Source: a virus
Lineage: Duplodnaviria; Caudoviricetes
Virus record (IMG/VR): IMGVR_UViG_3300014208_000023
Span: 32,001 to 96,000 of that record
Reading direction: 5' to 3' (one strand)
Length of the DNA stretch: 64,000 nt
Numbering within the stretch: the first letter of the stretch is position 1; each line of letters opens with the position of its first letter. Positions 35,673-52,979 of this stretch are shown one piece after another. Both the position numbers and the translations under genes were made by a program. Below the pieces are notes generated by a model, which was given only the letters and a program-made list of their open reading frames with translations, searched no databases and was not told the origin of the DNA.

Positions 35673-35693
35673 ACGTTAGATATATCCTATCCT

Positions 35694-36323
35694 ATGCAAC
35701 ACCAACTACTAGACATATTCCAGTTCGATAATGTAGATCCAGGACTGACTCCAAAGTATTACTCCGCCGATAATAAGAAACACGACATTCTAGTTATGAA
35801 CGGAGATGGTTCATTTCAAAAAGGAAAGCTTGGAGTAACACCTGACACTGGTATTCAGATTCCTCTCTTTCCTATGAGCGAACCCTGGAAACTATCTCAC
35901 AAGACTCCTCAGGGAATGCAATCACTACTTGAAACCTTCATTAGTTCTTTTCTTGGTCAGATAGAGCCTATAATGATAGACTCAATATTAGAGATTAAGA
36001 GCTACATTAACAATAACGGCCATATAGTAGCTGGAACTGCCATTAGGAATGCTGAGGGTATGGAACAGATATGTCGTGGCTACACCAATATCTATGAGCT
36101 CGTTAATAAGGCAGAGGCTAGCAATACCATTAATGACAGAAGATGTGTCTTTCTTAAGTCTATGGACCCCTATACAATAATGATTTGCCCGGAACCAGAA
36201 GAAACCGGGATATTCAGCTATATGGGCCATGTTCAACCAGGAACCAATAATGTTACTAATAGAGAAATTGGCTTCTTTTTATTACCGAAAGATATTAAAG
36301 TATTTAAACTCCAGGTAGCGTGA
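35694..36323 (+). CDS. Divergent major-capsid-protein-like paralog
   Basis: D-PG..P.Y..D, IPLF and ICPEPEETG segments recall a large-phage HK97-fold MCP family; paralog of 39389-39991. Confidence 0.45.
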   Translation: MQHQLLDIFQFDNVDPGLTPKYYSADNKKHDILVMNGDGSFQKGKLGVTPDTGIQIPLFPMSEPWKLSHKTPQGMQSLLETFISSFLGQIEPIMIDSILEIKSYINNNGHIVAGTAIRNAEGMEQICRGYTNIYELVNKAEASNTINDRRCVFLKSMDPYTIMICPEPEETGIFSYMGHVQPGTNNVTNREIGFFLLPKDIKVFKLQVA

Positions 36324-37026
36324 GTTGTCTTGGATCTGGAATAGGCATTAGGTTAAGTTTCTGCTTAATCTTCTGAACTTGATCTTGCCAAAAAACGATA
36401 CCCTTCTCTATTTCATTTTGAGTAAGCTCTCTGGTGTTATCCTCATTAAAAATTGGCTTCTTAAGAGACAAAGCCTGGCGATGTTCTAAAAGCTTCTGTT
36501 CTGCTTCCTTAAGAGAGAATTTGAGATAAAGAGTTCTATTATGCTCCTTCTTATCGCTTGGAGATAGAAGATTAACCCTATTATATTCGAAATGGTCAGA
36601 AGGCTCATAGGTATATCCCAAAGACTCACCATACTTAATAGCCTCGGCCTTAAGAAGAGATCCAAAATTAAAACGCCGATAATTAGGATCGACGAATAAA
36701 TCTACCATAAACAAAGGATCGGGCTTATCTGTTTCCTTTCCTAATAGAGCCCATCCAACGATCTTGGGCTTATTGCTCTTACCTTCTATAGTTAAAACTA
36801 CGGCAGAAAAGGAATAATCGAACTTATGGCCATCATTGGAAGAATCTCTCAGCCTTGAGATGGCTATATCCATATCCGATCCAGACCCCTTACCATTAGA
36901 AAGGGCGTGAAGTCTAGGCAGTATGACCTTAGGAATCTCTATATAGTAATGAAGCTTATGCTTAGGGGCGAATAGGTTAGTTTGCTGGGATAGCCTGAGA
37001 AAAGTATCTGCTAGTTTATTAAGCAT
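36304..37026 (-). CDS. GNAT-like acetyltransferase domain protein with N-terminal LNKLADTF motif
   Basis: IVGWALL..LFVDPNYRRFNFGSLL (GNAT motif A). Confidence 0.65.
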   Translation of the reverse strand: MLNKLADTFLRLSQQTNLFAPKHKLHYYIEIPKVILPRLHALSNGKGSGSDMDIAISRLRDSSNDGHKFDYSFSAVVLTIEGKSNKPKIVGWALLGKETDKPDPLFMVDLFVDPNYRRFNFGSLLKAEAIKYGESLGYTYEPSDHFEYNRVNLLSPSDKKEHNRTLYLKFSLKEAEQKLLEHRQALSLKKPIFNEDNTRELTQNEIEKGIVFWQDQVQKIKQKLNLMPIPDPRQLTLPGV

Positions 37027-37041
37027 TTTTATTAAGCATTT

Positions 37042-37674
37042 TTATTTGGTTATAACTTTTCTGCTCTTACCCGGCCCAACTATAACTAGTATATCACCCA
37101 TCATTGTTTGCTTAAGATTAACGAACAGATCCTTTATTCTCCAATGAGTTTCGTGCTTGGTATCATTATGCATTACCGGGAAAGACTTAGTATAATTAGA
37201 TAGTATCTTCTTGATTTCATTATAATCCGCGGAAAGAACATCAGTGATTGAAATATCGTAATCTCCATTGGTTTCCGTAAGATCGTTAATCTCTGAAGGA
37301 GCATAATCTATTAACAATGACCTAATATCTTCTATTACCTTCCTGCTTCTTATGAAAGGATCCTGGGGGTCTCTTTTAGGCGGCGGAACCAGAGAAAGAT
37401 GCCTCGGCTTATCATCGGCATCCATATCATCAACATCATTTTCAATAGCCTCAAGCTTATCATAATACTTCGGATCCTCGGTAAGATGATCCATAGCTAT
37501 TTCAAGCTGCATATGAGGATTATTGGTGTGCTCGGATTCTATCTTCTGACCCTTAAGTAGTGAGTGGCTATCGAACTCGGATGGGTCTCTCTTATCTGCT
37601 AAGCCACCAGGAATCTTATCTTTCCAAGATAGAGTCTCCAATTCAAAAAGAGTTGCTAGTGTAAATAGTCTCAT
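37042..37674 (-). CDS. DUF5661-like domain protein
   Basis: GQKIESEHT...EIAMDHLTEDPKYYDKL; N-terminal LFTLATLF. Confidence 0.75.
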   Translation of the reverse strand: MRLFTLATLFELETLSWKDKIPGGLADKRDPSEFDSHSLLKGQKIESEHTNNPHMQLEIAMDHLTEDPKYYDKLEAIENDVDDMDADDKPRHLSLVPPPKRDPQDPFIRSRKVIEDIRSLLIDYAPSEINDLTETNGDYDISITDVLSADYNEIKKILSNYTKSFPVMHNDTKHETHWRIKDLFVNLKQTMMGDILVIVGPGKSRKVITK

Positions 37675-38141
37675 AGCGAAGTTGTTTCCTTATGTTTCTT
37701 GGATTCGGAATGAGAAGTAGTTATATGAACCTTAATCTCTTTATTGGCCATAACCAGAGAAATGGCGTGATCTGGGTAATAGAATACCATCTTCTCTCCG
37801 GTATCTATCTTATGTTTTGTATTGAAGGTAGATTGGATAAACTGGGCTAATTTGCGATAAAGATGAAAGGAATTGGCGGAAGCGGTAATGATTGAAAACT
37901 GGTAATCAAACCGGCCTTGCTTGTGTAGCTTGGAAACATCATCTCCAAAGTTACGATCTATTATTTGATAAGCAAAAGTATAGATTGAGTTTATTATAGC
38001 CTTTGTCTCCGGGAACTTCGGTAATATGGCCGTAGGAGATTTTTCAGTCTCTGGGAACCTTTCCGTAGTTGCGGGTTGATCCTTGTTCTCCGCTTCCTTA
38101 GCGAAGGATTCTGCCAGAGCAATAAGATCCATAATCTTCAT
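37671..38141 (-). CDS. Hypothetical protein with N-terminal LIALAESF motif
   Basis: Clean ORF, 4-nt overlap with the next gene. Confidence 0.75.
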   Translation of the reverse strand: MKIMDLIALAESFAKEAENKDQPATTERFPETEKSPTAILPKFPETKAIINSIYTFAYQIIDRNFGDDVSKLHKQGRFDYQFSIITASANSFHLYRKLAQFIQSTFNTKHKIDTGEKMVFYYPDHAISLVMANKEIKVHITTSHSESKKHKETTSL

Positions 38142-38250
38142 ATAGATATGCTAAATTATAATCAATCCTGACAATCATTTAACAACCTATTGATTCCTGT
38201 TATAATAGCAGCCAGAAAGAACAATCCAATGGAGATAAAGATTAATATAT

Positions 38251-38472
38251 TCATAGTGTAGTTATATCGGGAAATCTAGTCCAAAGCCAATCTTTATCCC
38301 AAGTTTCTATTGAGCTATGGTCAGTGAATGAAGTATCGATAGACCAATCATTCTTTGTTTCAACATGTCCAGTGCCGGCTTCGTATTGAAAGCGACCAAG
38401 TATAGACGGCCTGAGGATTATTATATTGGCCCTCTTATATATTAAATGTCGGGGATCGGTTTTAATCCACAT
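38251..38472 (-). CDS. Trp-rich hypothetical protein
   Basis: GAGG/AAAG RBS, clean ORF. Confidence 0.6.
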   Translation of the reverse strand: MWIKTDPRHLIYKRANIIILRPSILGRFQYEAGTGHVETKNDWSIDTSFTDHSSIETWDKDWLWTRFPDITTL

Positions 38473-38745
38473 TATCTTCTTTCCTCTCTTGAGATATATC
38501 TAATCAGCAAACCAATGGCTATCATAATACATAGTCCGGCAACCTCTCCAATACTCATAAATCAGTCTATATCATAGGTCTTTCTAGTTTGAATTCAGAA
38601 GAGATTATGATTAGATTGAGGGGAATGGCAAAGAGGTTATAGTCTAATTGTAGGCTTTATACTGTCAGGGTCTGGAGGGCATATAAAATGGGGTCCGATC
38701 GGAAATCTACAACGGTAATGTCCGTATTCAGCGGTATCTATCAGA

Positions 38746-39309
38746 TCACTTATAATCTTCAAGCTTAATGTTCTTAAGCTTTCCTACAACATCCTCAAGC
38801 TGGCCAACCCTATCCTTATCCTTGAAGCTGGCCGGCCCTTCATCCGAAGCCTTGCGCGTAAAATCTAAAGTTTTATTAACACGAACATCATATTCATAAT
38901 CATCATTTGGTGGTGCCGTCTTAAGCTTACTATAGCTGGACACATCTTCCTGATGAAGCGTATCGTATTTAAAACTTTCCAAAGTTTCGGCGCCTGATTG
39001 AGTAATGACAAAACGCTCCGGAAACTTGCGTTTAGATGGTACATGTGTTCTCTCGCGTAGTCTGGTCGGATCTCCGAGCCTATTTCTTTCGACATCTTGC
39101 GTAACTCCATGATTCTCTGGAACCAAGTCCAATTCTCCCCAACGCTGTAGTCTTGAGGCAATATTCCATTCTTCATCAGTTAAATCGCTAGTGGCCACAT
39201 ATCCCATTGGACTGTTATTGATTTTATTAAGCAACTTAAGCTCTGCCTTGGGGTCTCTGGTAGATTGGGAAACCACATAAAATTGGTGAGCAAGCTTGTA
39301 TAGGTTCAT
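38746..39309 (-). CDS. Hypothetical protein with N-terminal LYKLAHQF motif
   Basis: Clean 187-aa ORF. Confidence 0.75.
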   Translation of the reverse strand: MNLYKLAHQFYVVSQSTRDPKAELKLLNKINNSPMGYVATSDLTDEEWNIASRLQRWGELDLVPENHGVTQDVERNRLGDPTRLRERTHVPSKRKFPERFVITQSGAETLESFKYDTLHQEDVSSYSKLKTAPPNDDYEYDVRVNKTLDFTRKASDEGPASFKDKDRVGQLEDVVGKLKNIKLEDYK

Positions 39310-39388
39310 AGTATAATGCCATTAGAGGAATTGATTATTTGATATTTTTTATGGCCATCATAGTGAGCTTCTTGATATATAAAGAGTT

Positions 39389-39991
39389 ATGCCTGCCGAA
39401 ATTATAGAAATTCTCCATAAGGATATTTTGCCTATAAACCTACCTCCCATTTATGAGATGAGGGATGGTAATGGTAACGCGGCGGGCTTCGAAGGTCTTT
39501 TCTATCGCAGAGGGCTTACTCCAAGAGAGTATAAGTCATTGCCGGGCGAACAACTTGAAGTGCCACTAGTCAATTTAACCAGACCGGCCCATGGCTATGA
39601 GTCATATCTTCCAGAAGTTAAAGATGAAATTGAAACGTTTGTTAATGAATGTGTTTCAATTCTTCCCTATGCTCAATTGAGTATTAAGGAGGCCCTAACT
39701 AGCGCAGACGTTTTCTTTCAGGATAGGGGAACGTTCATAAAACATATCCTATATTCATCCGACCTTACGGAAGAGCTTTCTCCAGTTTTTAGTTATGTCC
39801 TTAAGTCCCAGTGCATAAAGCTTAAAGACAAGAAGCGAACATTGGTTATATTGCCGGAGCCCGTTTGTGCTGGCACCATAGCCATTAAGGAGGCCCTGGC
39901 TAGTTATGGTCCAACTTCTGAACCACTAGACAAAACTAGATTTGGAATGATGATATCCAGTGTGTATTGGTGCGTCAATGAAGTCCCCTAA
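39389..39991 (+). CDS. Divergent major-capsid-protein-like paralog
   Basis: ILPINLPPIY and LVILPEPVCAG segments; aligns by eye with 35694-36323. Confidence 0.4.
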   Translation: MPAEIIEILHKDILPINLPPIYEMRDGNGNAAGFEGLFYRRGLTPREYKSLPGEQLEVPLVNLTRPAHGYESYLPEVKDEIETFVNECVSILPYAQLSIKEALTSADVFFQDRGTFIKHILYSSDLTEELSPVFSYVLKSQCIKLKDKKRTLVILPEPVCAGTIAIKEALASYGPTSEPLDKTRFGMMISSVYWCVNEVP

Positions 39992-40037
39992 TTTTGCAGT
40001 TAAAGAGTTCGTTAAAGAAGTAGGCGCAATAAGGTAG

Positions 40038-40604
40038 TTATTTTTTAACTTTCTCAATATAAGAATGGACCTTACGAATCCAAACCTTAAACTCTCGTAA
40101 CGACATTTTACCCTTGGCCCAATTACAAGTTCGGCAGCAAGGAACAACATTTTTTTCGTTATGGGGCAGCGAATTGTCTTTTCTGTCTAGCCCATTATAT
40201 TTGAATGTTCCGTGTAGGATAGCAAAATCAGATACACCTTCTTTTTTGCACTTAAAAATATTAATTGAATTTGATGACTCTATTCCGCAGTAATGACATT
40301 CTTTTTGAGAAAGCTTAAGGAACTTATCAAATGATAAGTCGCCATCGCTATAGCCGCTTCTATAAATGAATTTGGCAGAGGCAAGCTTGGCGGTAGCTGG
40401 ATCGGAATGTGATTGAGAACAACCGCAAGATCTGCTTGGTCTATCATTTTTTGTGAGACGGTCCTTGGTAAAAATTCTCTTACTGCCACATTCACACTTA
40501 CATAGGTAGGCCAATCTTGCGCGCCCAGAAACTATAACACACTCTTCTTTTTTAAGAACAGTGAGCTTTCCAAATACTTTTCCAATAAAATCATCAACAG
40601 TCAT
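40038..40604 (-). CDS. HNH homing endonuclease
   Basis: GKVFGKLTV, CKCECG, CHYCG, YNGLDRKDN, NVVPCCRTCNWAK. Confidence 0.9.
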   Translation of the reverse strand: MTVDDFIGKVFGKLTVLKKEECVIVSGRARLAYLCKCECGSKRIFTKDRLTKNDRPSRSCGCSQSHSDPATAKLASAKFIYRSGYSDGDLSFDKFLKLSQKECHYCGIESSNSINIFKCKKEGVSDFAILHGTFKYNGLDRKDNSLPHNEKNVVPCCRTCNWAKGKMSLREFKVWIRKVHSYIEKVKK

Positions 40605-40611
40605 TGATTCC

Positions 40612-40953
40612 TTAAATTAAAATCAGATACTTTTCGATTTGACCAGGCCTCTTGAAAAGTTTAATCATAGTGGATTCGTCGCATTCAAACTCCATTAGGT
40701 TATCGGCTGATGATTCTTGAAATATCACCATAGTTTGGTTCGAACATATAAATTGGCAGCAAATGTTTTTATCGCTTATTTGTTTATAGAGCCTTATATC
40801 CCTAACTTCCGTTTGGTCATCATACCTAATGGTGCATACTAGATCATAGCACTCAATGCAACCAATAGCATTGTTCAAAGGATACTCAATGCCAATTTTT
40901 GATTTGCAGCCTGGGCACTTCTTGAATGTTTTAAGAAACTTATCTACCGTCAT
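40612..40953 (-). CDS. Zn-ribbon hypothetical protein
   Basis: CPGC / CIEC pairs. Confidence 0.7.
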   Translation of the reverse strand: MTVDKFLKTFKKCPGCKSKIGIEYPLNNAIGCIECYDLVCTIRYDDQTEVRDIRLYKQISDKNICCQFICSNQTMVIFQESSADNLMEFECDESTMIKLFKRPGQIEKYLILI

Positions 40954-40990
40954 TGGTGTGGCTTGTTCCCGTGCAATCGCATATACCGGG

Positions 40991-41596
40991 CTACAGCTTT
41001 AAATACTTGGCATCGATTTTTTTATTTGGAGTGACGATAATAAGGTGTGGAACGTCAGAAGCATAGTGAGTTGTATGCGTAACGTCATATCCCTTCCAAA
41101 GCTCAGCTGGCTCCTTAAGCGTATAAGGCATAACCTCGCCTAATGACAGCTCTTTTTGTCTTTTATCAAACTCCTCGTCTGACATATTATCCTTGTAGAT
41201 AGCCAACTCTACTCCAATAAGTTTAGTCTTCGGCTCACCACTCATTAGCTTGGATAGGTTTATAGTTATCGGAATAAGATCTAGCTTATGGATATTGTGT
41301 TTTTTAGTTATCTTGGTCCAATCTGGCAAAGTAAAGAAGGCACTAATTCCTCCAACCAACCCTTTCATTTCTGGATCTTCTAATTTTTCTTCAACTTTTT
41401 TCTTGAAACTTTTGCCGTCATCTGGTCTTGCTAGATTTAAAGCCTTCTTGTCTTTGACCAATTCTTCTGCTGACAAAAGGCCCTTAGTCTTAATGGAATC
41501 TATTGCATTTTTAGGAACAAAAGTAAATAAGGTAATTTCGCTAGCTAGTATATGAAAAGATTGAGATAGTTTTATAAGGCGACTTATATTACTCAT
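40991..41596 (-). CDS. Possible ADP-ribosyltransferase-fold protein with N-terminal LIKLSQSF motif
   Basis: LFTF..IDSIKTKGLLS, ISAFF, PHLII..KIDAKYL; start revised to MSNIS. Confidence 0.4.
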   Translation of the reverse strand: MSNISRLIKLSQSFHILASEITLFTFVPKNAIDSIKTKGLLSAEELVKDKKALNLARPDDGKSFKKKVEEKLEDPEMKGLVGGISAFFTLPDWTKITKKHNIHKLDLIPITINLSKLMSGEPKTKLIGVELAIYKDNMSDEEFDKRQKELSLGEVMPYTLKEPAELWKGYDVTHTTHYASDVPHLIIVTPNKKIDAKYLKL

Positions 41597-41616
41597 ATGT
41601 AAATGCGACAAAATCC

Positions 41617-43188
41617 TTGCGCCTATTATTTTTGCATAAATATGTGGTAATATCGCGATCGGACATGGAGTTTCTGTATTCTGTGGCGGCTAGTCTTTTT
41701 GAAGGAAAAGATATTCCCGAATGGATTTCGCAGCATCCAGCAATCAAAAACCGTAAAATTAAAAAAGTATTCCCTAGTATTGGTCTTCCCAATTTTAAAG
41801 AAAAAGTAGAATTGCAAGAAGAATCATTTGCACCAGATTACTATACCCCATTTGTTAATGGAGCAATTTCCGGAATAAAACATGAGTTATTAAGAACTAA
41901 CGATATCATATCGGATGCATTTGAAGCTTTTCGTTCGGCCTATCTTTCTGGTGTTACAGACGAAAATGATAGAAATGATATTATAGAAGAAATGAGTGGT
42001 CTCCAAAAAGAAGGCAATATTTTAATAAATATAAACAAATCGTTTAATGACAGTATAGGTGCAGAATGCATTGTTCCTATGCCTGATGGTAGGGTTAAAT
42101 TAATTTTATCCAAAACTTTAAGTGCTAATGGCAAAGATATTGTTAAAGAAGGAACTTCTATATTTAGGGCCTTTAATACTATTAAAGTTCTTGTTGATAA
42201 TTTTTTTAAAAAATGTGGAACTAATAATAAAATGATTGATTTAGATCAAAAAGAATCAATGAAAACGTTTCATAAATTAAATGTTCCGATCGGCAAGCAA
42301 GAAAATTATATATCTTTTTCTTCTAGCGGAGAAGAGGGCGCGTGGGATATTGCCACTATGAGTATGAGGGGGATATCATCTTGCCAATCTTGGGATTCTA
42401 GTGTTGGAAATGGAGAGCATCGTCCATGTATAATAGGAAGTATTGCTAGCAATTATGTAGGAATTATATATCTAACTTCCGGCAAAGATTTTGAAGGCAA
42501 GGGAAGCAAAATGATTCGCCGTTGTATAGTGAGGTTTGGAATAGATATGTCGAAACCTAAAAAAGAACGGCATCCAGTCATTATAGTAGATAAGATGTAT
42601 GATAGCTATCATCCAGTAATAGCTAAATTATTTTTAGAAGCAATTAAAAAAAGATCTGAAGTTCCAGTTTTAGATTTTACTAATAGTGAGGCTAGCACGG
42701 AAAATATTAAATTGCCTGAGCAATATTTGCCAAATATTATAAATCAAAATGAAAAAAATCAACAATTAGCTGGTAAGCCAGGATTTCCAAGCTATCAAGA
42801 CTCGGATTTTGAATATATAAAAAAGCAAAAAAATAATGACAATAAAGATCTTATAAAACAAAATAGAAAATCAGTGCAGGAGATAACTGATAAATTAGTT
42901 ACTTATTTTCACAGCTCGTTTAATTTGTTTGATAAAAGCACCGATACTAGAGAGATATCAGAAGTATTTAATCGCGCCCTCAGTGACTTAATTTTTAAAA
43001 TAACAACCAAAAATGATATTATGTCAAGGCCTTCTTCATTTGTAAAGAAGTATTTTCTTATAAAAGCAAAAAAACTACGATTGAATGGGGTAAGATATGA
43101 TTTTGATAACCATACCTTAAAAGTAATTGATAAGATCATGGGAGATTTTAGAAAATATGTGGGCACTCTATTTACAATAGATGACTGA
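41617..43188 (+). CDS. Large hypothetical protein (likely start 41665)
   Basis: 523-aa ORF; WDIATMSMRGISSCQSW motif; no function assigned. Confidence 0.75.
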   Translation: MRLLFLHKYVVISRSDMEFLYSVAASLFEGKDIPEWISQHPAIKNRKIKKVFPSIGLPNFKEKVELQEESFAPDYYTPFVNGAISGIKHELLRTNDIISDAFEAFRSAYLSGVTDENDRNDIIEEMSGLQKEGNILININKSFNDSIGAECIVPMPDGRVKLILSKTLSANGKDIVKEGTSIFRAFNTIKVLVDNFFKKCGTNNKMIDLDQKESMKTFHKLNVPIGKQENYISFSSSGEEGAWDIATMSMRGISSCQSWDSSVGNGEHRPCIIGSIASNYVGIIYLTSGKDFEGKGSKMIRRCIVRFGIDMSKPKKERHPVIIVDKMYDSYHPVIAKLFLEAIKKRSEVPVLDFTNSEASTENIKLPEQYLPNIINQNEKNQQLAGKPGFPSYQDSDFEYIKKQKNNDNKDLIKQNRKSVQEITDKLVTYFHSSFNLFDKSTDTREISEVFNRALSDLIFKITTKNDIMSRPSSFVKKYFLIKAKKLRLNGVRYDFDNHTLKVIDKIMGDFRKYVGTLFTIDD

Positions 43189-43189
43189 T

Positions 43190-43771
43190 TTATGATACTA
43201 AAAGCTGTTTTTTGATTTTAAGAATGAGTCCTTTTATGTTCTTAAGCCCTAACTCTTTTAGTGGGCCCACGAACGGTAGTTGAAAGTGATTCTTACCATC
43301 AGGGGTATGAGCGAAAAGCTCTTCTTTTTTAAAACTATTCGATAAAATTAAGTGATCAGAACTATGCTTTAGTTCTGCCCGCTCTGATCGCACCTCTATT
43401 GGGCCCATAGTTTCAGAATCACGATCCATCGTTATGTGGGTCGAGTAATACTTAAAGTTTCCGCAATTTATACATGACGACTCTAACTGTATCGTGTCAT
43501 ATGTGTCTGGTGGAGTGGAGGATAGGTGCCGACGAAGAACATGATAAGGAGTAGATAAGATAAACGGCCGATTACTATTTATTATATTTGAGTAATTCAG
43601 CAGTAATTCTAGAGGCTCTTTTTCATCCTCATATACTGTAATGAGGAGGCCATCTTTTGTTTTATCGACGGTTGATGGTATTGATAAGTCAGTATCTATA
43701 ACTAGATTGCCATCGCATATCGGGCAGCAACTATAATGATTAACGAAATTGATAAGTGTTTTTTGTTTCAT
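43190..43771 (-). CDS. Zn-finger hypothetical protein
   Basis: CPIC and CINC pairs; own promoter. Confidence 0.7.
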   Translation of the reverse strand: MKQKTLINFVNHYSCCPICDGNLVIDTDLSIPSTVDKTKDGLLITVYEDEKEPLELLLNYSNIINSNRPFILSTPYHVLRRHLSSTPPDTYDTIQLESSCINCGNFKYYSTHITMDRDSETMGPIEVRSERAELKHSSDHLILSNSFKKEELFAHTPDGKNHFQLPFVGPLKELGLKNIKGLILKIKKQLLVS

Positions 43772-43780
43772 GGTAACGAT

Positions 43781-43808
43781 AAGTTAGCCACTACTTATCG
43801 TTTGTCAA
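43781..43808 (-). promoter_or_regulatory. Sigma70-type promoter overlapped by a palindrome
   Basis: TTGACA-16 nt-TAACTT; AACGATAAGT / ACTTATCGTT inverted repeat. Confidence 0.6.
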
Positions 43809-43865
43809 GCCCAAAGATAGTTGTCGAGAAAGATGGTATAGAGAGTATATATTGATGGCTACTGA

Positions 43866-44330
43866 TTAGCGGCCTACAGTAAAGTTATCACTTTTTGGAT
43901 TCACGAATGTCGAAGTATCTCTTAATCCCTTGACATCTGCAATAGGTCTGGTTACTTTTTGTGCCGGCTGATTAACTGGCTGTTCTGAAGGTTTCTTTCC
44001 TTCGTATTTGGAGGCTTCATCTAAAATTCTTGAATAGAGAGCATCTGGGCTGGAATTTGGTCCTGGAAATTTAGTTTTAAATGCTTGTATCGCATCCTTC
44101 GTTTCCTTACCAAGAAGGCCATCAGCACCGTGTTTTGGAAGAGGAAATCCTAAACTCATAAGGGCAAATTGAACTGATTTTGGTATAGCTGCCGACACTG
44201 GAGCGGCAGGAGCTTTGGCAGGTATCGCCCCACCAAAAGGCCCTTTATCAGAAATGCCTCTAATCTGCTCTATAGACGGAACTTGGGAAGCCTTTTCAAA
44301 CGCAACAGCAAATTTATATAGACCCTTCAT
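43866..44330 (-). CDS. Peptidoglycan-binding-domain protein with N-terminal LYKFAVAF motif
   Basis: VQFALMSLGF...ADGLLGKETKDAIQAFK (PG_binding_1); start revised to MKGLY. Confidence 0.8.
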   Translation of the reverse strand: MKGLYKFAVAFEKASQVPSIEQIRGISDKGPFGGAIPAKAPAAPVSAAIPKSVQFALMSLGFPLPKHGADGLLGKETKDAIQAFKTKFPGPNSSPDALYSRILDEASKYEGKKPSEQPVNQPAQKVTRPIADVKGLRDTSTFVNPKSDNFTVGR

Positions 44331-44385
44331 AAAATTATCCTTTTCAGATAAATATCTCATTATTACTACATAGAAAACTAATAAA

Positions 44386-45459
44386 ATGCACCAAAACAAT
44401 AAACATTCATTTGAGAGCTTCATAATACAATGCTGCAAAGCTAAAGAGTGGGACCTTCGACGCTTTTTAAAGAAAAGGCTTGTCAGCGAAGGATTTACAA
44501 TTCAGGAAGATAATTATCGTTCTGACCGCTGCGATTATCTTGGAAAATACAATAAGGTTCATAACTTATTGGCTATCCGTGGAAATCCTCGTGTATGTCT
44601 GGTCGCTCATACCGATGTTTGTAGAGATCACGGCTGGGCTGGTGCGCCACAACCACCAGACGTTTTCCCGGTACTCAAAAATTGGGGAACTCCAAAAGAG
44701 CCAAGAATGGTTATACAGGATAAGGAATGTAAGTTTCAGACAGGTGGAGATGACCGCCTAGGTGTGGCTATAAATATGTGGCTGGCTCTTAATACCGGAT
44801 ATGATGTCGCACTTCTATTTACCACTGATGAAGAGATTGGCCTTTGTTCTGCGAGTGAGGTTAGGTTTCCAGAGCTTAATGAGTTTGATCTTCTATGTCA
44901 GGTTGATAGGGGCAATAAAAGCAATCAGCTAGTAACCCGCATAGGTGGAACGCAGTTATGTTCGGCTACAACTGCAAAGAGACTATTGAAAATAGCAGAA
45001 GACATGGGAAGGCCACGAGATGAAGTGAGCGGCCTATGCACTGATGTTCAGGTAATAGTAAGAAATGGCATAGCTAAAGAGGCCGTTAATATGACTTGTG
45101 GATATCATAATTCCTTCGGAGATAGTGCCAAGGAATATATAGATGTTGAAGAGGCCAGAAGCACAATGAAGTTTGTTTCTAACATAATTCAATACTATGA
45201 CTTGCAACGAGACATGCAAGAGGAGCATGAGTATGAAGGAGAGGAAGAGACCGACGATGATGTTGAAATCATAGATGGCGAATTTGATATTGAAAATTAT
45301 ATCAAAGTTATTTCTCAAGCCCGGTCTGAAACAAGACCATCTTTTAAAGGCCTTCCAAAAGAGAAAAACTATAAAAGATTAAATCGCAATAAAAAAAGAA
45401 AATATATAGAGGCCATCTTTGATGAAGATCTTTATAATAAAGAGAGTAGAACAATATGA
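44386..45459 (+). CDS. Zn-dependent peptidase, M20/M28/M42 clan
   Basis: AHTD, GGDDRLG, DEEIG, QVDR, GYHN metal-ligand motifs. Confidence 0.85.
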   Translation: MHQNNKHSFESFIIQCCKAKEWDLRRFLKKRLVSEGFTIQEDNYRSDRCDYLGKYNKVHNLLAIRGNPRVCLVAHTDVCRDHGWAGAPQPPDVFPVLKNWGTPKEPRMVIQDKECKFQTGGDDRLGVAINMWLALNTGYDVALLFTTDEEIGLCSASEVRFPELNEFDLLCQVDRGNKSNQLVTRIGGTQLCSATTAKRLLKIAEDMGRPRDEVSGLCTDVQVIVRNGIAKEAVNMTCGYHNSFGDSAKEYIDVEEARSTMKFVSNIIQYYDLQRDMQEEHEYEGEEETDDDVEIIDGEFDIENYIKVISQARSETRPSFKGLPKEKNYKRLNRNKKRKYIEAIFDEDLYNKESRTI

Positions 45460-45982
45460 AATCAATAATATGTTCTAGCTGTAGAGGAGCTTTTACTGCC
45501 CATGAAAGCGATAAATGCAATATGTGTCGCCCAATTGATGCTTGTAGTGGGGGAGGATGTTGGGAAGGCTGTCCCCATTCTATTAGTGGAAAAGCGTGGA
45601 ATGAAGGATTCCGTGCCGCAATTAAAAAAGCGGCTTACATATGTGATGCTATGGTTATAGGCGGAAGAGCATGGACTGAGGGGCAGGCGATTGCTGCTGA
45701 TGCGCTATTTGCTGCTTCCAAAAATATTAGAACATTGGGCGAGGTTCAGAATCCTTTAGAAGAGCTTAAAAAAGAAAATAACTCAAGATGAAAAAAGTAA
45801 ATATAATTTATGCTATTATTGGGTTTATGATCGCAGTCGTTCTTATGCCGCCAGTAGTATTTTCTATTCTCTATATTAATAGGGCTGGTTGTAGATGGAT
45901 TGAGACACCATTAGAATTGCCTGGGTGGTCAGTAATTGATCCAGATAAAGATAATCCTATTTGGTGTCCAGAAAATAGATAA
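45456..45982 (+). other. Hypothetical CDS (45456-45791 Cys-rich, 45788-45982 TM)
   Basis: ATGA overlaps. Confidence 0.65.
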
Positions 45983-45983
45983 G

Positions 45984-46382
45984 CTAAATCATTAGTGATC
46001 GTAAATAAACGCGCTGTAATTGAAGACATTTACCTGGCGGACCATATTTGCTTTCTTCAACATACACTAGGCCATTACGATAACACAAAACAATATCAGC
46101 CTCACTTCTATTGGTAAAATCTAATAAGTTACGCAAAACAAGAATACGGCGATCGAGACCATGCTCTCTTTCAACGTAATATCCGTCCGAAATATATCCA
46201 TCACCCAAGTAGTCGTAACCATCCATATAACCATCTTGGTAGCCATCAATATGCTTGTCGAACACTTCGGCAGTCTGGACCTCGGTTATGTATAGCTGCT
46301 GCACCAACTGTGCCAGAACCCCAGAAGAGATATTGGAGTTGATAAAAATAACTGACGGTGGGTTAAGTAGATTGCTCACCAT
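45984..46382 (-). CDS. Hypothetical protein with five DGY repeats
   Basis: DGYQDGYMDGYDYLGDGYISDGY; start revised to MVSNL. Confidence 0.7.
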   Translation of the reverse strand: MVSNLLNPPSVIFINSNISSGVLAQLVQQLYITEVQTAEVFDKHIDGYQDGYMDGYDYLGDGYISDGYYVEREHGLDRRILVLRNLLDFTNRSEADIVLCYRNGLVYVEESKYGPPGKCLQLQRVYLRSLMI

Positions 46383-46435
46383 GATATATGAAAATAGGAA
46401 GATACTAAAGAAAAACATAGGAAAGAAAGAACACA

Positions 46436-46960
46436 ATGAGAGAAGCTCCAGGATTTATTTTTGCACTACGAGAAGACCTTAAAGAAGATAAGCGGTTTTT
46501 GCCAGAGAGAGCAGAGCCGCTAGCAACCGGATATGATTGTAGAGCCGCCCAGCAAGATCGTAAAGATATAGTAGTTAGTCCGGGGGAGATGGTGAAAATA
46601 CCACTAGGATTTAGGGCATTTTGTCCTCCAGGTTGGTGGTATCTTCTTCACCCAAGATCAAGCTTCTTCGTTAAAAAGAACATGCATACTCTTACTGGAA
46701 TAATAGATGAGGCATTTCCACTAGAAACCTGTTTGGTCGCCCAGTATCTTCCTGACACTAAAGGCGTTACCCAAAACCTAGTGATTAAATTTGGAGATGC
46801 TATCGGGCAAATAATTCCAGTTAGACGTGAAGACATGTATCGCATAGAAGTATCCAATGAAGACATGGACAAACTATACGCCAATAGAGGAGCAATTAGA
46901 ACTGGTGGGATCGGTAGCACTGATAAGATGGGTTTCTATAAAACCGGCGGCAATAGATGA
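46436..46960 (+). CDS. dut: Trimeric dUTPase
   Basis: ATGYDC, PRSS, GIIDEAF, IGQII, RTGGIGST motifs. Confidence 0.92.
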   Translation: MREAPGFIFALREDLKEDKRFLPERAEPLATGYDCRAAQQDRKDIVVSPGEMVKIPLGFRAFCPPGWWYLLHPRSSFFVKKNMHTLTGIIDEAFPLETCLVAQYLPDTKGVTQNLVIKFGDAIGQIIPVRREDMYRIEVSNEDMDKLYANRGAIRTGGIGSTDKMGFYKTGGNR

Positions 46961-47154
46961 TTGATTTATCTATATTAGCCATAATCATGTTAATTATGAT
47001 TCCGTCATTTCCAATTTTATTTATATTGGTAGCATGTTTGCTCCCAAAGAGGGAAAGCTTAAATGAGTGATCTTGCAATTATTTTGATTTCGATACTTTC
47101 TACTATATGCGTTTTAGCGGTATTAGAAATTCTTTTTGTTTATAGGAAGCACAG

Positions 47155-47699
47155 ATGAAAGAAGAAGCCAAGAAAAATGTTACGCCCGTATTTGAAATGT
47201 ATGAGATTAAAGTAGAGGCTATGGTTCCCTGCTCTTTTGTATATAGAATACGCGCAGAAACTCCTGAAGATGCAATCAAGAAGCTTGATAAGCACCACCC
47301 AACTCAATTCGTTCCACACAACACAAGGAAGAAGATGACAAAGGCTACGGTATATAATTCTGGAACATTAACAATAAGAGCGACGAAGAATTTCAGGTAA
47401 TTTTAATGAATAAAGAATCAATAAATACAATTTTACCGTACCCAAAAAGTTGCGGAAGTTTTGGGTGTGAAGAATGCTATGGAACATCATCGGCCGAGTG
47501 CAAATCATTGCAGCGTAAACTTGCAAAATGGGCAAAGACTCAGTTAAGTATAGTCGGTACCTCTTCGGCTTCTTACGAAGAAACTTATGATATAAACGAG
47601 AATTGTCCGTATTGTCTTGATGCAACTGCCAAGACCCTATTTATTGATCTGCAGCAGGCGCGAAATCAGATAGTTGCATTGCTTAAAGAGATAAAATGA
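47155..47699 (+). other. Hypothetical CDS (47155-47400, 47406-47699)
   Basis: Clean ORFs. Confidence 0.65.
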
Positions 47700-48283
47700 G
47701 CGAAATACAGTTCTATGTGGTGGATACTGAAACAAATGGGTTATCACTGTCATTTCACGAAGTATATCAAATATCGATCATCAGATGTTCTGATAAAATG
47801 CAATTTACTAGAAACATAAGGGTTGACAGGCCAGAAAACAGTTCTTATGATGCATTGAAGATAACGGGCAAGACAATGAATGACCTACGTAGCGGCGTAG
47901 AAAAACAGGAGCTTATGCGAGAGGTAGAATACTTCTTATCAGAAGACGGCGCTCCTTCTACTCATCGATGCATGATTGCTCATAATGCCGCTTTTGACAG
48001 AAAGTTTCTATGCGCCTTATGGGAAAAGTTTAATAAAAAATTGCCTTTCGATTTATATTTAGACACGATACATATGTTCAAGGCATATTGTAAGAAACAA
48101 GGGATTGTTAAAGCAAAATCAAATCTAACGGCCGCATGTGATTTAATAGGAATCCGTAAGATGGGCAGCGCTCACGATGCCAAGATAGATACTCAACATA
48201 CATTTCTTTTGTGGCAAGAACTAGCGCAAACAGAAGACTTTTTAGACCACGTTAAATGTTTGCCCCATAATCTTGAATTATAA
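47696..48283 (+). CDS. DEDDh 3'-5' exonuclease (DnaQ-like)
   Basis: VVDTETNG, AHNAAFDRKF, HDAKIDT. Confidence 0.92.
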   Translation: MSEIQFYVVDTETNGLSLSFHEVYQISIIRCSDKMQFTRNIRVDRPENSSYDALKITGKTMNDLRSGVEKQELMREVEYFLSEDGAPSTHRCMIAHNAAFDRKFLCALWEKFNKKLPFDLYLDTIHMFKAYCKKQGIVKAKSNLTAACDLIGIRKMGSAHDAKIDTQHTFLLWQELAQTEDFLDHVKCLPHNLEL

Positions 48284-49102
48284 GATGAGACTATTTGAAA
48301 TCGAAGAGGCACACGATATAATCAAACATATCAACGGTATGCTGCTCATGTTTAGCGCAACACCTAAAACCAGCAAACTTCTTATAGAATACCTGCAATC
48401 CTTAATTCTTGAGCTTCAGGACCAAGACCTAATTGATGAGGCGCAAGACCAATCTGGAGAAGAAATCAATCTAGATGGCCAGGTTAATTTTCTAAAATCC
48501 TTATTAAAAACTTTAGAGGAGAGAGAACTTCCTAAAGTTATTGTGGATAAAAATAGTAACTGAAACGAATTATGTAAGTGAAAAATATCGATTTAGAAAC
48601 TTTCTATAGTAGAGCTAGAACCTCTCTTGAGATCGCTAGCTCATATGTTGGTAACAAGGCCTTTAAAAAGCTAGTAGTTTCTTGCCGACTAAAACCCATT
48701 ACCATATTTGATGATTCTTTTAGAGCGGGCAGATTAGAGTATTGGTGGGTAGATGAGTTTGGTAATTCGTTATTGCTTGCCGATAATAAAATAAAAATAG
48801 TTAAGAACGATCAGAATATAAAAATAAACACTAAAATAAGTACTGATTTATTTTATGGAAAATCTATTCTTGCAACTTCAAGAATAAGCAAATCAATTGC
48901 CCTATCCGGCGATCATTTAGTTTTCTATGGTAATGACGAATACTTTAGATGTTTTGATGTTACAAACGGTGAGAAAATTTCTCCATTAGAAATAGATATT
49001 AATGAGTTAATTGATGTGCAGAGAGGTCTTGGCGGCTCCTATAGATTGCCAAGTAATGAAATTGAAATGATGTTAATAAAGGAATATTCTAGATATGAGT
49101 GA
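48273..49102 (+). other. Hypothetical CDS (48273-48563, 48578-49102)
   Basis: Clean contiguous ORFs. Confidence 0.7.
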
Positions 49103-49325
49103 TGAAAATTATATGGAGATGGAAGGCGTTGTCGATTCCATTTGCAGAGACAAATTTACGGTAGTGGTTAATGACACTAATGATATGGTCGTTATATGCA
49201 CCGTAAGTGGCAAGATAAGAACATCCGGTATAAAGATATTGGCCGGCGACTCGGTTAAGCTTCTAGTGTCTGCACACGATGTTACGAAGGGCAGAATCGT
49301 TTATAGAATGAAGGCAAGTCAGTAG
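49095..49325 (+). CDS. infA: Translation initiation factor IF-1 homolog
   Basis: MEGVV..FTV..VICTVSGKIR...IKILAGDSVKL.VS.HDVTKGRIVYR. Confidence 0.93.
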   Translation: MSDENYMEMEGVVDSICRDKFTVVVNDTNDMVVICTVSGKIRTSGIKILAGDSVKLLVSAHDVTKGRIVYRMKASQ

Positions 49326-49333
49326 GTTTATCA

Positions 49334-51259
49334 ATGAGTAAGAAATCAGTTGAAGTCAAAAATCTTGAAAAACAAATCAAGAAGGCTAGTAACGCATATT
49401 ATAATAAAAAAGATGGTAGCAACGAAGAGGTTGCTATGTCTGATGCGGCCTATGATCTTCTTATAGATAGGCTTGCCGAATTGGATCCAAAAAATCTAAT
49501 GGTAACTTCTATTGGTGCGCCAGTTGAAGAAGATGGCTGGAAAAAAGCCAAACACCAAGTAATGATGGGCTCTTTGAATAAAGCCGCCGAGGCAGAAGAA
49601 ATTAATGTCTGGCTAGATAAATACATCAAAGAAACTGACGAAGTATTTATAATTGACAAGGTTGATGGTCTTTCTATTGAATGTCTTTATGAGGACGGAA
49701 AATTAATTAGCGCCATCTCAAGAGGAGATGGTAAAATTGGCGATGAGATTTTTGATAACGTATCAAAGATGGGCGGAGTTAAATTAGTTTTACCGCTACT
49801 ATTTACTGGAAGTCTTCGTGGCGAGATCATTCTTACCAAAGAAAACCACAAAAAACACTTCGCCGATAAGGCTAACGTTCGCAATACTGCCGCTGGAGTA
49901 GCCAGAAGACTTGATGGTGAGGGCTGTGAGCATCTAGATGTTATATTCTATCAGGCCGTAGGCAATGTGGAGTTAGCTACCGAAGTAGAGCAAATGGAGT
50001 TTCTAACTAAAAATCTTGGATTAAACACTCCAAAGTGGAGTTGCTCATTTGGAACATTAGATAAGAAATCATATGTAGATAGCGCTTATAACTCTTATAA
50101 GGATGAGATTCGTGCTGGCCTAAACTATGAAATTGACGGTCTAGTTGTTAAGGTAAATAATCTGCAAGAGCAGCAAGACCACGGAGAAAGAGACGGCCGA
50201 CCAAAAGGAGCCATTGCGTATAAGTTTCCTGTTGAAAGAGCCAATACGGTAATAACCAACATAGTTATTCAAACTGGCAACTCTGGGAGACTAACTCCCG
50301 TAGCTGAATTTGACCAGGTGCTGTTAGCCGGAGCTATGATTGGTAGGGCCACGCTGCACAACTTTAAACGAGTTCAAGAGCTAGGAATTGATGTTGGCGC
50401 TGAAGTGGTAATCACAAGACGTGGAGATGTTATTCCAGCAGTTGAAGCTGTGCTAAAATCAACTGGCAGTATATTTCAAACACCAACAGAATGTCCTGTC
50501 TGTGGTGGTGATGTTGAGATGCAAGGAGAGAATCTTATGTGCCTCTCTACTGACACCTGCCCAGCACAAGTAAAGGGAAGAATTTCTAATTGGATTAATG
50601 CTATTGGAGTTCTTGAGTGGGGAGATAAGATTGTAGACAAGCTAGTTGAAAGCGGATTGGTTAAAACCATTGCTGATATTTATAAGCTGTCTATAAAAGA
50701 CCTTATGAGCATAGAGCGAATGGGCGAGATTTCTGCTAAAAAATGTCACGCCATTCTGTGGTCACACAAAGTTATTCCTCTAGATATCTTTATTGGCGGA
50801 TTAAGCATTCCAACGGCAGCATCATCAACTATTAGAATGCTAATGGAGGCCGGATATGATTCTATGGATAAGATTCTAGATCTTCGCAATACAGATGGTT
50901 CTGAAGTTATGAAGGTCAAAGGAATTGGGGCTGCCAAAGCCAAACTGCTTATTGATGGACTTAAAAGAAACAATAAAATCATAAATGAAATCCTAAAATC
51001 AGGAATCACTATACGTCCCAACGTAGAAGGCAATCTTACTGGCAAAAAAATTGCCATTACTGGAGCAACAAACTTAAAGCGATCGGTATTGCAGGGCCTT
51101 ATTTCAGACAACGGCGGATCATATAAATCAAGCATCAGTAAAGACTGCACGTTTCTTGTTATATCAGATCCGAACAGCGCCTCCATCAAGGCAGTAAGCG
51201 CTCGTGGAATGGGAATTAAGCTAATAAGCGAAGATGAGTTATTGGAGATGATAAAGTGA
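49334..51259 (+). CDS. ligA: NAD-dependent DNA ligase
   Basis: DKVDG adenylation motif, RGDG, EIDGLVVK, AIAYKF, Zn finger, HhH, BRCT. Confidence 0.97.
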   Translation: MSKKSVEVKNLEKQIKKASNAYYNKKDGSNEEVAMSDAAYDLLIDRLAELDPKNLMVTSIGAPVEEDGWKKAKHQVMMGSLNKAAEAEEINVWLDKYIKETDEVFIIDKVDGLSIECLYEDGKLISAISRGDGKIGDEIFDNVSKMGGVKLVLPLLFTGSLRGEIILTKENHKKHFADKANVRNTAAGVARRLDGEGCEHLDVIFYQAVGNVELATEVEQMEFLTKNLGLNTPKWSCSFGTLDKKSYVDSAYNSYKDEIRAGLNYEIDGLVVKVNNLQEQQDHGERDGRPKGAIAYKFPVERANTVITNIVIQTGNSGRLTPVAEFDQVLLAGAMIGRATLHNFKRVQELGIDVGAEVVITRRGDVIPAVEAVLKSTGSIFQTPTECPVCGGDVEMQGENLMCLSTDTCPAQVKGRISNWINAIGVLEWGDKIVDKLVESGLVKTIADIYKLSIKDLMSIERMGEISAKKCHAILWSHKVIPLDIFIGGLSIPTAASSTIRMLMEAGYDSMDKILDLRNTDGSEVMKVKGIGAAKAKLLIDGLKRNNKIINEILKSGITIRPNVEGNLTGKKIAITGATNLKRSVLQGLISDNGGSYKSSISKDCTFLVISDPNSASIKAVSARGMGIKLISEDELLEMIK

Positions 51260-52060
51260 AAAAAGATCATAAATTCGTTAAGTCAGACATAGTTATCCAT
51301 CCTGATGGGTGGCAAGGAGAAATAACTAACATTAGCGCCAGTGGCAGGCTTGGGTTTGTTGGTCGTTGGGTTAGTCTGGATGACTTGGAATTTTGCTATA
51401 ATGCAGACGAGGCCGATGAAGAAGCTGGTCGCAAAAGCACCGGCTCATTACCATCTACTCCTCATGAAAATTCCACGATAGATCATGAGTCTATTACTGC
51501 CTTATTAAGTTGGCGAGATAGTAGTACCGATCATTATGGGGATGATTTAATAGCTCTTCTAATGGCAGAGTTTAGCTCTGATCCATATACATTACATCAT
51601 AACAGAAAGGATATTCCTGGTGAATACCTAAAAGGATTAGAAGAAATTAAAAAATTATCTTATGATGATCAACATAAAATAATTGAGGCTTTTGTAGAAA
51701 AACAATGAAAAAAGTAGAATCAGACGGCAAATGCCCTATGACTGGTCATCAGTGCACGTGCATTCCACGCACAACAGGCCATTGGTGTTGTTGGAGCATT
51801 CCTAGAACAGAGATGGAAGCGTATCGTGCAACTCTAGAAATAGAGCAGTCTGATGATTCGGATGATAAGAAATGAGTCGTTCGCGTAGAAAAAAGAAACG
51901 CGACAAGGTGTTTCCAATATTTGAGACAGGTTGTCCGCTATGTGATCCCGAAGCTAGACGTCAGATTGGACGCGAAGCAGAAGATCGTGATGAGACCAAG
52001 TTTATTCATAAAACTATTGCTGAAGACCTGGCTGACTATAAAGATAAGGAAGATAAATGA
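51256..52060 (+). other. Hypothetical CDS (51256-51708, small Cys-rich ORF ~51705-51869, 51872-52060 basic CxxC)
   Basis: Contiguous plus-strand ORFs. Confidence 0.6.
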
Positions 52061-52479
52061 AAAGAGTTGTAATTGAATCGCCATATGCAGGTGAAGTAGA
52101 AGAGAATGTTGCATATGCTAAACGTTGTGTAGGAGATTGTTTAAAGCGTGGGGAATCGCCTTATGCATCTCATTTGTTTTTTACGCAACCCGGAATGCTA
52201 GATGATTTGAAACCAGAAGAAAGAGAGCTTGGAATATTGGCCGGTTTTGCTTGGGGAAAAGCTGCCGATACAATAGTTTTCTATATTGATCGCGGAATAT
52301 CTGGAGGAATGCTTCGTGGAGTTACATCGGCACTTGAAAATAATAAAAACATAGAAGTCCGCTCTCTTGAGCGCAAAGTAACACAAGAAGACATTGGCAA
52401 ATTAGGACTTATTACTTATTTCAATAGAATTGAGGATGTGGCGCGAGAACAAACAGAGTTGGACTTACTTATTAGCTAG
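52057..52479 (+). CDS. Nucleoside-deoxyribosyltransferase-like / DUF4406-like phage protein
   Basis: VVIESPYAG..NVAYA..GESPYASHL..LDD..ERELGI.AG.AW..FYIDRGIS.GM. Confidence 0.7.
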   Translation: MKRVVIESPYAGEVEENVAYAKRCVGDCLKRGESPYASHLFFTQPGMLDDLKPEERELGILAGFAWGKAADTIVFYIDRGISGGMLRGVTSALENNKNIEVRSLERKVTQEDIGKLGLITYFNRIEDVAREQTELDLLIS

Positions 52480-52979
52480 TAGCCCGGCTCGTCTCTTTTA
52501 ATTTCCGGCTCATCTAACTCTATAGTTTCTTTTGGTGCTCCTGGTGGCCCAATATAATAATGACGATACGCTGCAAAATTAACTGCATCACGAAGAATTT
52601 CTAAATTAGTTTCAAGTATATCTATGGATGTTGAGGAGATGTTTTGCACTCCCTTCTTCTTTAGAACTTCTGCTGGATCTAGCCCTAATCCTTTTAATTT
52701 TTCTTTGCTTAACGTAAGAGCGGCCAATAGTGATTCTATTGTTTTAAGAGCAGACGCATCTCCATAGGCAGGCGCTTTTTTATAGGCAGCAATACCATCG
52801 AATATCTTTTTGGCTACGGCCGGCGAATAAAGATAGGTTCCGGTCCCTCTAAACGCAGAAAGAAGCGTATTTGACCACAAATCAATTTCTTTTTTCTGTG
52901 CCGGATTCATTTTTGTATTTAGCTGCTGAGCTAATTTAGCAAATATTTCACAGGCTAAAGATAGTTTTGGCGTATTCAT
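52476..52979 (-). CDS. Hypothetical protein with N-terminal LSLACEIF motif
   Basis: Isolated counter-oriented ORF. Confidence 0.7.
   Translation of the reverse strand: MNTPKLSLACEIFAKLAQQLNTKMNPAQKKEIDLWSNTLLSAFRGTGTYLYSPAVAKKIFDGIAAYKKAPAYGDASALKTIESLLAALTLSKEKLKGLGLDPAEVLKKKGVQNISSTSIDILETNLEILRDAVNFAAYRHYYIGPPGAPKETIELDEPEIKRDEPGY

Follow-up and report, generated by a model that had tools for sequence, protein, structure and literature searches.

A shared N-terminal helix on otherwise unrelated proteins of an uncultured huge phage, a candidate portable address tag

Known address peptides and the element under study

Short N-terminal capsid-targeting peptides are already known from phage T4, and terminal address peptides are known from the HK97 protease, encapsulins and microcompartments. 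In T4, the ADP-ribosyltransferase (ART) Alt and unrelated internal proteins are packaged via N-terminal propeptides of 10-19 residues (PMC9026906). Here, we describe an N-terminal sequence (the tag) that is shared by 12 otherwise unrelated proteins of an uncultured huge phage. Seven of these are encoded in the stretch of DNA that was analyzed (the window; 64,000 nucleotides), which corresponds to bases 32001-96000 of the virus record IMGVR_UViG_3300014208_000023. Coordinates marked "genome" refer to the whole record, the others to the window.

Several other systems come close. The C-terminal tail of the HK97 prohead protease and the cargo-loading peptides of encapsulins are short terminal peptides that dock cargo inside an HK97-type shell. 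The encapsulation peptides of bacterial microcompartments (BMC; PduP, PduD, EutC) are N-terminal amphipathic helices of ~15-18 residues which are joined by a linker to unrelated enzymes. Proteins of the MuF/SPP1 gp7 type have a folded, portal-binding N-terminal domain of a few hundred residues that brings variable toxins or effectors into capsids. The leader of ribosomal protein L27, which is cleaved by Prp, has the motif MLxx(D/N)LQ(F/L)F'A(S/H)KK, and this motif also occurs on capsid and scaffold proteins of phage 80alpha (PMC9405229).

Like the capsid-targeting sequences (CTS) of T4 (on IPI-III and Alt), the tag is a short, portable peptide at the extreme N-terminus of proteins that otherwise have nothing in common. 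Also as in T4, the putative cargo includes likely host-takeover enzymes, one of which has a predicted ART fold as a counterpart to Alt. The sequence of the tag is, however, different, and it is not followed by an (L/I)-x-E cleavage site. The phage lacks a gp21-type (S77) protease and a recognizable T4 core, its protease being fused to a scaffold-like protein of 1121 residues. The putative cargo proteins number at least 12, compared to 3-4 in T4. The tag resembles the BMC peptides as an N-terminal amphipathic helix with a linker on unrelated enzymes, and a BMC shell protein (PF00936) is absent from the phage. The HK97 protease tail and the encapsulin peptides differ from it in sequence and are mostly C-terminal; an encapsulin shell gene (PF04454) is likewise absent. 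With the L27 leader, the tag shares its N-terminal position, a Lys/Leu followed by Phe at the same spacing, and its occurrence on phage proteins, but the (D/N)LQ(F/L)F'A(S/H)KK motif is absent from the tags. As in MuF proteins, a constant N-terminal address is combined with a variable C-terminal cargo, but here one short helix makes up the whole constant part. What is new is the tag sequence, its occurrence in a clade whose head machinery is different, and the larger number and variety of carrier proteins.

The phage record has 428,320 bp with direct terminal repeats. Its TerL is at most 24% identical to that of any cultured phage (nearest: 23-24%), and the 1121-residue protease-scaffold protein has 243 relatives (clusters at 50% identity, E < 1e-30). 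Judged by the distant TerL and these relatives, the phage is a member of a large uncultured clade of huge phages. Near-identical phage records were not found.

The tag and the proteins that carry it

The tag has the pattern L-x-K-L-A-x-x-F-(L/Y/E)-x-(I/L)-(S/A)-(Q/S). On all 12 proteins it begins no more than 8 residues from the start codon (onset 1-7 residues after it). The regular expression L..[LFI][AS]..F was run over the six frames first and over a greedy gene call of 676 genes (134,045 residues) second. Among the called genes there are 25 matches, and 13 of them begin within 8 residues of the start ATG: the 12 tags and one lipoprotein signal peptide. The internal rate (12 matches per 103,625 positions) predicts ~0.7 matches for the first nine positions of 676 genes, which gives a Poisson p of ~1e-12 by our own arithmetic. 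A looser test that covers the first 45 residues found 13 matches against 3.5 expected (p = 8e-5). There are seven occurrences of the core K[LI]A..F in N-terminal regions and one in internal sequence, of which four times as much was compared. These statistics rule out that the tag is a chance recurrence.

A hidden Markov model (HMM) was built from the 12 tagged proteins. Its members score 9.7-21 bits, compared to 5.8 bits for the best internal match. The best other N-terminal match (MEYKLSTLFENLTQ, genome 316526-318832) scores 8.6 bits. Since weak N-terminal matches (at least 3 bits) are about six-fold over-represented relative to internal sequence, a few more diverged members are likely; the candidates are genome 183150-183680 (MKKLAEDFEH), 223311-223994 and 340768-341415. 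There may also be a tagged member of 768 residues. Ungapped clustering of N-termini yielded no other leader family, only small paralog families related over the whole protein.

The first-pass annotation, made from the window only, had described the motif on eight counter-oriented proteins, had noted a trailing (S/A)(Q/E), and had proposed an HMM and proteome scan. All eight open reading frames (ORFs) are present with the N-terminal peptides that it gave, and the scan bears out that the motif is N-terminal. Positions 12-13 are indeed [S/A/T][Q/S/E] in most copies, and when relatives are included, the consensus becomes (L/I)-(I/L)-K-L-A-(D/E/S)-(E/S/Q)-F-(L/E/Y)-K-(L/K/I)-(S/A)-(Q/S/A). Seven of the eight proteins are in register. 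The eighth (52476..52979, minus strand, 167 residues; N-terminus KLSLACEIFAKLAQQ) is doubtful, its MNTPKLSLACEIFAKLAQQ fitting only with a one-residue insertion and its HMM score (2.1 bits) being noise. A similar variant with Cys, LFNLCNIFYKLAT, occurs in the related locus L052. The counter-orientation proved to be local. It applies only inside a block that is mainly on the plus strand (genome 70-103 kb, window 38-71 kb), the only one in the genome. Genome-wide, 555 of the 676 genes (82%) are on the minus strand, so that 12 of 12 tagged genes on that strand corresponds to p ~0.09. The counter-oriented arrangement within the plus-strand block is conserved in the related locus L051.

The tagged genes of the window are without exception minus-strand genes. 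The first (5701..6090) codes for a protein of 129 residues without a family match (N-terminus MAANSELIKLADEFLDEVSG; tag codons at ~6034-6072). A GNAT acetyltransferase of 240 residues (36304..37026; PF00583, E 3.7e-6) begins with MLNKLADTFLRLSQQ (tag codons at ~36985-37023). Its gene is the last of three consecutive tagged genes, and no relatives of the protein were found in viral contigs. The neighboring DUF5661 protein (37042..37674, 210 residues; PF18905, E 1.9e-8; N-terminus MRLFTLATLFELETLS) has the weakest tag of the 12 (9.7-12.2 bits). Its ortholog P0002, which is 91% identical, retains the tag, and the N-termini of other DUF5661 proteins differ. Two further proteins lack a family match: one of 156 residues (37671..38141), in which a polar, Pro-containing linker follows MKIMDLIALAESFAKEAENKDQP, and one of 187 residues (38746..39309; MNLYKLAHQFYVVSQSTRDP) that has the highest-scoring tag. 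The product of 40991..41596 (201 residues; N-terminus MSNISRLIKLSQSFHILASE) is predicted to have a DarT/Tpt1-like ART fold. Its AlphaFold2 (AF2) model, built on an eight-sequence alignment, has a pLDDT (predicted local distance difference test) of 87, and the top Foldseek matches are DarT DNA ADP-ribosyltransferases (E 3e-3, TM ~0.45) and Tpt1. These matches to a predicted model lend weak support to the earlier label "ART-like". The seventh protein (43866..44330, 154 residues) begins with MKGLYKFAVAFEKASQVP, followed by an Ala/Pro-rich linker, and may bind peptidoglycan (PG): the Pfam match to PG_binding_1 (E 0.0088) is below the cut-off, and PHROG assigns an endolysin (E 4.4e-4).

Outside of the window, there are five more tagged proteins, all encoded on the minus strand (genome 13805-14245, 101650-102117, 102141-102551, 186146-186949 and 207664-208371, the last being L005:4664-5371). 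One of the tagged bodies is a CheY-like receiver (REC) domain (E 4.1e-11). For the protein encoded at genome 186146-186949, a search of the ESM Atlas gave only weak HEAT-like leads.

Two of the tagged families may have a modular makeup of their own. In the alignment of the 207664-208371 family (A2), a second, internal tag-like helix, LRKNFAKFHKLAQ, directly precedes a conserved C-x-x-G-D-P-L-C loop, and the homolog P0133 begins at this internal helix. The alignment suggests that the protein consists of two modules, each headed by the same kind of helix. The DUF5661 core (~65 residues, IPGGLADKK...EIAMDHLTEDPKYYDKLE) is found at either end of proteins (37042-37674 and the homologs P0003-P0120), fused to NUDIX, 2H-phosphoesterase, SLT, GNAT, phosphatase and other domains. 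Contigs of 100-600 kb are the source of many such proteins, and by its domain contexts DUF5661 appears to be a modular adaptor domain in large phages.

The bodies of the tagged proteins are unrelated, as had been claimed. All-against-all BLASTP found no similarity beyond the first ~15-24 residues, and the families differ (GNAT, REC, DUF5661, weak PG_binding_1, the ART fold, and the rest without a match). The codons of the conserved tag residues vary between copies. Because of this, selection is on the peptide, as judged from the sequences, and a recent DNA duplication is ruled out as the origin of the tag. In the model of the 40991..41596 product, the tag is a helix (residues 2-18) with a pLDDT of 60-66, compared to ~90 for the body. 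The mean helical hydrophobic moment is 1.33 for the tags and 0.81 for other N-termini. Most tags are followed by polar or Pro-containing sequence. Tag and linker are thus modeled as an amphipathic terminal helix joined to its cargo by a linker, which is the arrangement of encapsulation peptides. A secretion or lipoprotein signal was considered and ruled out (the tags are charged and often acidic), as was a membrane-targeting helix (several tags have a net negative charge).

The tag is retained in relatives. Orthologs of the ART-like protein at 96-67% identity have it as L-[IL]-[KE]-L-[SA]-x-[SE]-F-[HY]-x-[LI]-A-S. An ortholog at 50% identity has a degenerate tag, and one at 47% has a different N-terminal domain of 140 residues; a further ortholog which appeared to be tagless is an assembly gap. 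In orthologs of the 207664-208371 protein whose bodies are 37-38% identical, 7-10 of the 13 tag residues are retained, as is the whole MVNDL...SQDP frame. In L051, the ortholog of the PG-binding protein is 35% identical overall and has a near-identical tag, MKDLYKLALAFEKASQV. By such alignments, the tag is better conserved than the body in two families. The tag is also found on proteins without a homolog in this genome, namely, a protein of 490 residues in L051 and two paralogs in L052. Six more are encoded in 17 kb of the locus L055, where genes for glucosaminidase and amidase are their neighbors. In the relative G001 (353 kb; 53% identity in TerL), two tags are clear and two are weaker.

A probable address tag, its proposed destination and the rival explanations

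We interpret the sequence as a portable address or docking tag that is read by one partner, with a probability of about 0.7-0.8. N-terminal confinement, the unrelated folds of the bodies, varied codons, conservation in orthologs, and the non-homologous carriers in relatives all fit this reading, and the modular address tag proposed at the outset is supported. The tag would be an amphipathic helix of ~13-16 residues, (L/I)-x-K-L-A-x-x-F-(L/Y/E)-x-(I/L)-(S/A)-(Q/S), usually with a polar or Pro-containing linker behind it. In this clade of huge phages, it would in the course of evolution have been joined to the N-termini of unrelated enzymes and binding domains. Through its hydrophobic face (L1, L4, A5, F8 and positions 9 and 11), it would bind a single common partner that the phage encodes. 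The core of the assembling prohead would be the most likely destination. Tagged host-takeover proteins (ADP-ribosyltransferase-like, acetyltransferase, receiver, PG-binding and others) would enter the head together with the DNA and reach the host at infection, and the tag may be trimmed near positions 12-13. We infer that there is a single receptor, that it would be located in the prohead, and that the tag may be cleaved.

The capsid as the destination, in the manner of the T4 CTS and as suggested by the first-pass annotation, is proposed tentatively, at somewhat less than even odds. The support is circumstantial. The cargo, with an ART fold, a GNAT and a PG-binding domain, brings to mind Alt and the internal proteins of T4, and besides there are tagged genes next to the head module and variant tags in a head-module family. 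Where the head module ends, the tagged gene 207664-208371 adjoins one annotated as "internal virion protein with endolysin domain", and G003 has two tagged genes at the same position. In the head-module family of genome 223311-223994, the N-terminal sequence is L-x-x-Y-A-x-x-F in G000 and G004, and VIKLASDY in G001.

A number of observations weigh against the proposal. Nine of the 12 tagged genes are located in or beside a nucleotide-metabolism and replication block and not among the structural genes. The head modules of six relatives are mostly tag-free; the canonical tag is lacking in the head-module fragments of G002, G004 and G005 (34-112 kb) and in the loci L065 and L066. In L065, a glucosaminidase and a phosphatase, which would be expected as cargo, are encoded between portal and protease and are untagged. 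The phage lacks the T4-type protease Peptidase_S77 (PF03420). The tags are not followed by a T4-like (L/I)-x-E site, their positions 11-13 being (I/L)-(S/A)-(Q/S), and no shared cleavage motif was found in them. Pfam and PHROGs did not reveal a major capsid protein in the head module, and a tag receptor was not found. K-x-A is not enriched at N-termini (134 seen, 131 expected). Finally, the phage is uncultured and known only from the groundwater metagenomes that are the source runs of the record. When the tag region of the 207664-208371 family (residues 1-45) was docked against the protease-scaffold protein (residues 241-1121), the score was 0.23 (mark 0.32), which speaks neither for nor against an interaction.

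The location of the tagged genes raises the question of whether the tag addresses proteins to a place other than the capsid, such as a replication or nucleotide-metabolism hub, an AAA+/Hsp100 machine or some other assembly in the cell at which accessory enzymes would be collected. In this phage as well as in L051, L052 and L055, the majority of the tagged genes are interspersed with genes for dUTPase, RNase T, DNA ligase, thymidylate synthase and dihydrofolate reductase, and the scarcity of tags in head modules points the same way. Several AAA+ proteins are encoded, including one of 798 residues that is ClpB/ClpA-like and one of 539 residues (28130-29749). We consider such a destination unlikely: a PG-binding cargo makes little sense in the cytoplasm, linkage to the head module is seen for some of the tagged genes, and in the few genomes at hand no candidate hub co-varies with the tag. 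Short N-terminal amphipathic signals also serve ClpX- and ClpA-type machines. The tag might accordingly be a degron or timing signal, by which an unfoldase-protease of the host or the phage removes takeover proteins at a fixed stage. The Hsp100-like protein of the phage and the regulatory or enzymatic nature of the cargo (REC, GNAT, ART fold) would agree with this. We nevertheless regard it as quite improbable, since ClpP is absent from the phage genome, the tag is more conserved than a generic degron would be expected to be (in two families more than the body), and the tagged proteins include long ones (490 residues, and possibly 768) and head-adjacent ones.

There may be no common reader at all if the tag is a generic amphipathic N-terminal helix, involved in self-association or folding, that arose by convergence or through domains shuffled long ago. 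Its core follows a simple heptad-like pattern, the 207664-208371 family has its internal tag-like helix, and in some DUF5661 proteins a similar stretch is found ~30 residues from the N-terminus. But specific residues (K3, A5, F8, S/A12) are kept beyond the hydrophobic pattern, the position relative to the start codon is strict (1-7 residues), and K[LI]A..F is concentrated at N-termini, which makes this explanation improbable. We regard as very improbable an L27 mimic, in which the tag would copy the N-terminal extension of that ribosomal protein and be cut by the host cysteine protease Prp, as in the Staphylococcus phage 80alpha. K-L-x-x-x-F-(F/Y/L) occurs with like spacing in both, and several copies have (H/N/G)-Q-F-(Y/L), which recalls L-Q-F-F. 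The published motif is, however, not matched, since the tags lack a conserved LQ and, behind the Phe, the A(S/H)KK. Genes for Prp (PF04327) and L27 are absent from the phage, and a Shine-Dalgarno-like sequence precedes only about a third of the genes, unlike in typical Firmicute phages.

Returning to the address tag, a more far-reaching version is that the clade has its own addressing code. One N-terminal helix would route a dozen or more changing enzymes per genome to a single phage-built destination, either the capsid interior or a new intracellular assembly, via a receptor that is unrelated to the T4 core. We find this version doubtful. If the tag loads the head, phages of this clade would inject a large and fast-changing set of enzymes together with their DNA (ART-like, acetyltransferase, receiver, a cell-wall binder and proteins of unknown function). 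This would go far beyond the three or four examples in T4 and would involve different head machinery. For phages that resist culture, it would single out candidates for the takeover and counter-defence proteins of the first minute, and it would provide a transferable handle of 15 residues for loading foreign proteins. If the destination is not the capsid, the tag would point to an unknown hub in the biology of huge phages. In either case, it is a simple marker by which genes of linked function can be found in hundreds of related genomes from metagenomes.

The head module, upstream signals and other regions

The head module includes the genes for TerL (genome 229524-231434), portal (genome 227626-229500), and the protease-scaffold protein (genome 218434-221799; L005:15434-18799). 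The N-terminal domain of the latter is assigned by PHROG as "head maturation protease", with an invariant D135-H136, S187 and three invariant Cys. In the remainder, there are two KKGY(Y/W)LGGGGVNEPTPGKVKY repeats and acidic stretches of low complexity, and its C-terminus is conserved and helical. With 1370 matches at E up to 0.001, the family is very large. A conserved head-module protein of 233 residues was predicted with a poor, all-beta fold (pLDDT 48). A tyrosine-phosphatase-like protein with a YRSSAP motif (genome 222655-223311) is conserved in all relatives and is untagged. The untagged phosphatase and glucosaminidase of L065 are encoded at L065:5288-6280 and 7086-7898. The phosphatase-like protein and the glucosaminidase are probably packaged enzymes.

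Enumeration of k-mers did not reveal a shared promoter upstream of the tagged genes, sigma-70-like sites are not above chance (42 versus 34 ± 6), and no RNA runs containing the region were found. Half of the 12 tagged genes, and the weak candidate 340768-341415, are preceded by (G/T)CAT-N6-ATG (6091-6100, 38142-38151, 39310-39319 and 41597-41606; genome 14246-14255 and 208372-208381). The background is 11 of 511 genes that start with ATG, and in relatives the signal is clear at only 2-3 of 18 tagged genes. A different signal, TGATATAT(A/C), is located 8-15 nucleotides upstream of the ATG in ~20 genes on both strands, including portal. Examples are at 35679-35693 and 39374-39388, and upstream of portal at genome 229516. 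The 8-mer is ~7-fold enriched upstream of genes, and none of the tagged genes has it. Judged by this placement, it may be a phage promoter or a short-leader signal.

Positions 12000-35000 of the window (~23 kb) have a G+C content of 0.50-0.55, compared to 0.33-0.40 elsewhere, and their ORFs are all short. Alternative genetic codes or a reassignment of stop codons bring no gain in this region. The 539-residue AAA+ ATPase (PHROG 8638, E 2e-142) is encoded within it. The 798-residue Hsp100 protein (genome 374576-376972) has two AAA domains and a start that resembles a Clp N-domain. Genome 400000-425000 contains two families of small paralogous proteins (80-150 residues) with conserved N-termini. 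One begins with C-x-x-N-(I/C)-K-V-G-D (~15 genes), the other with MFCKTIK-x-KY-x-P (~6 genes).

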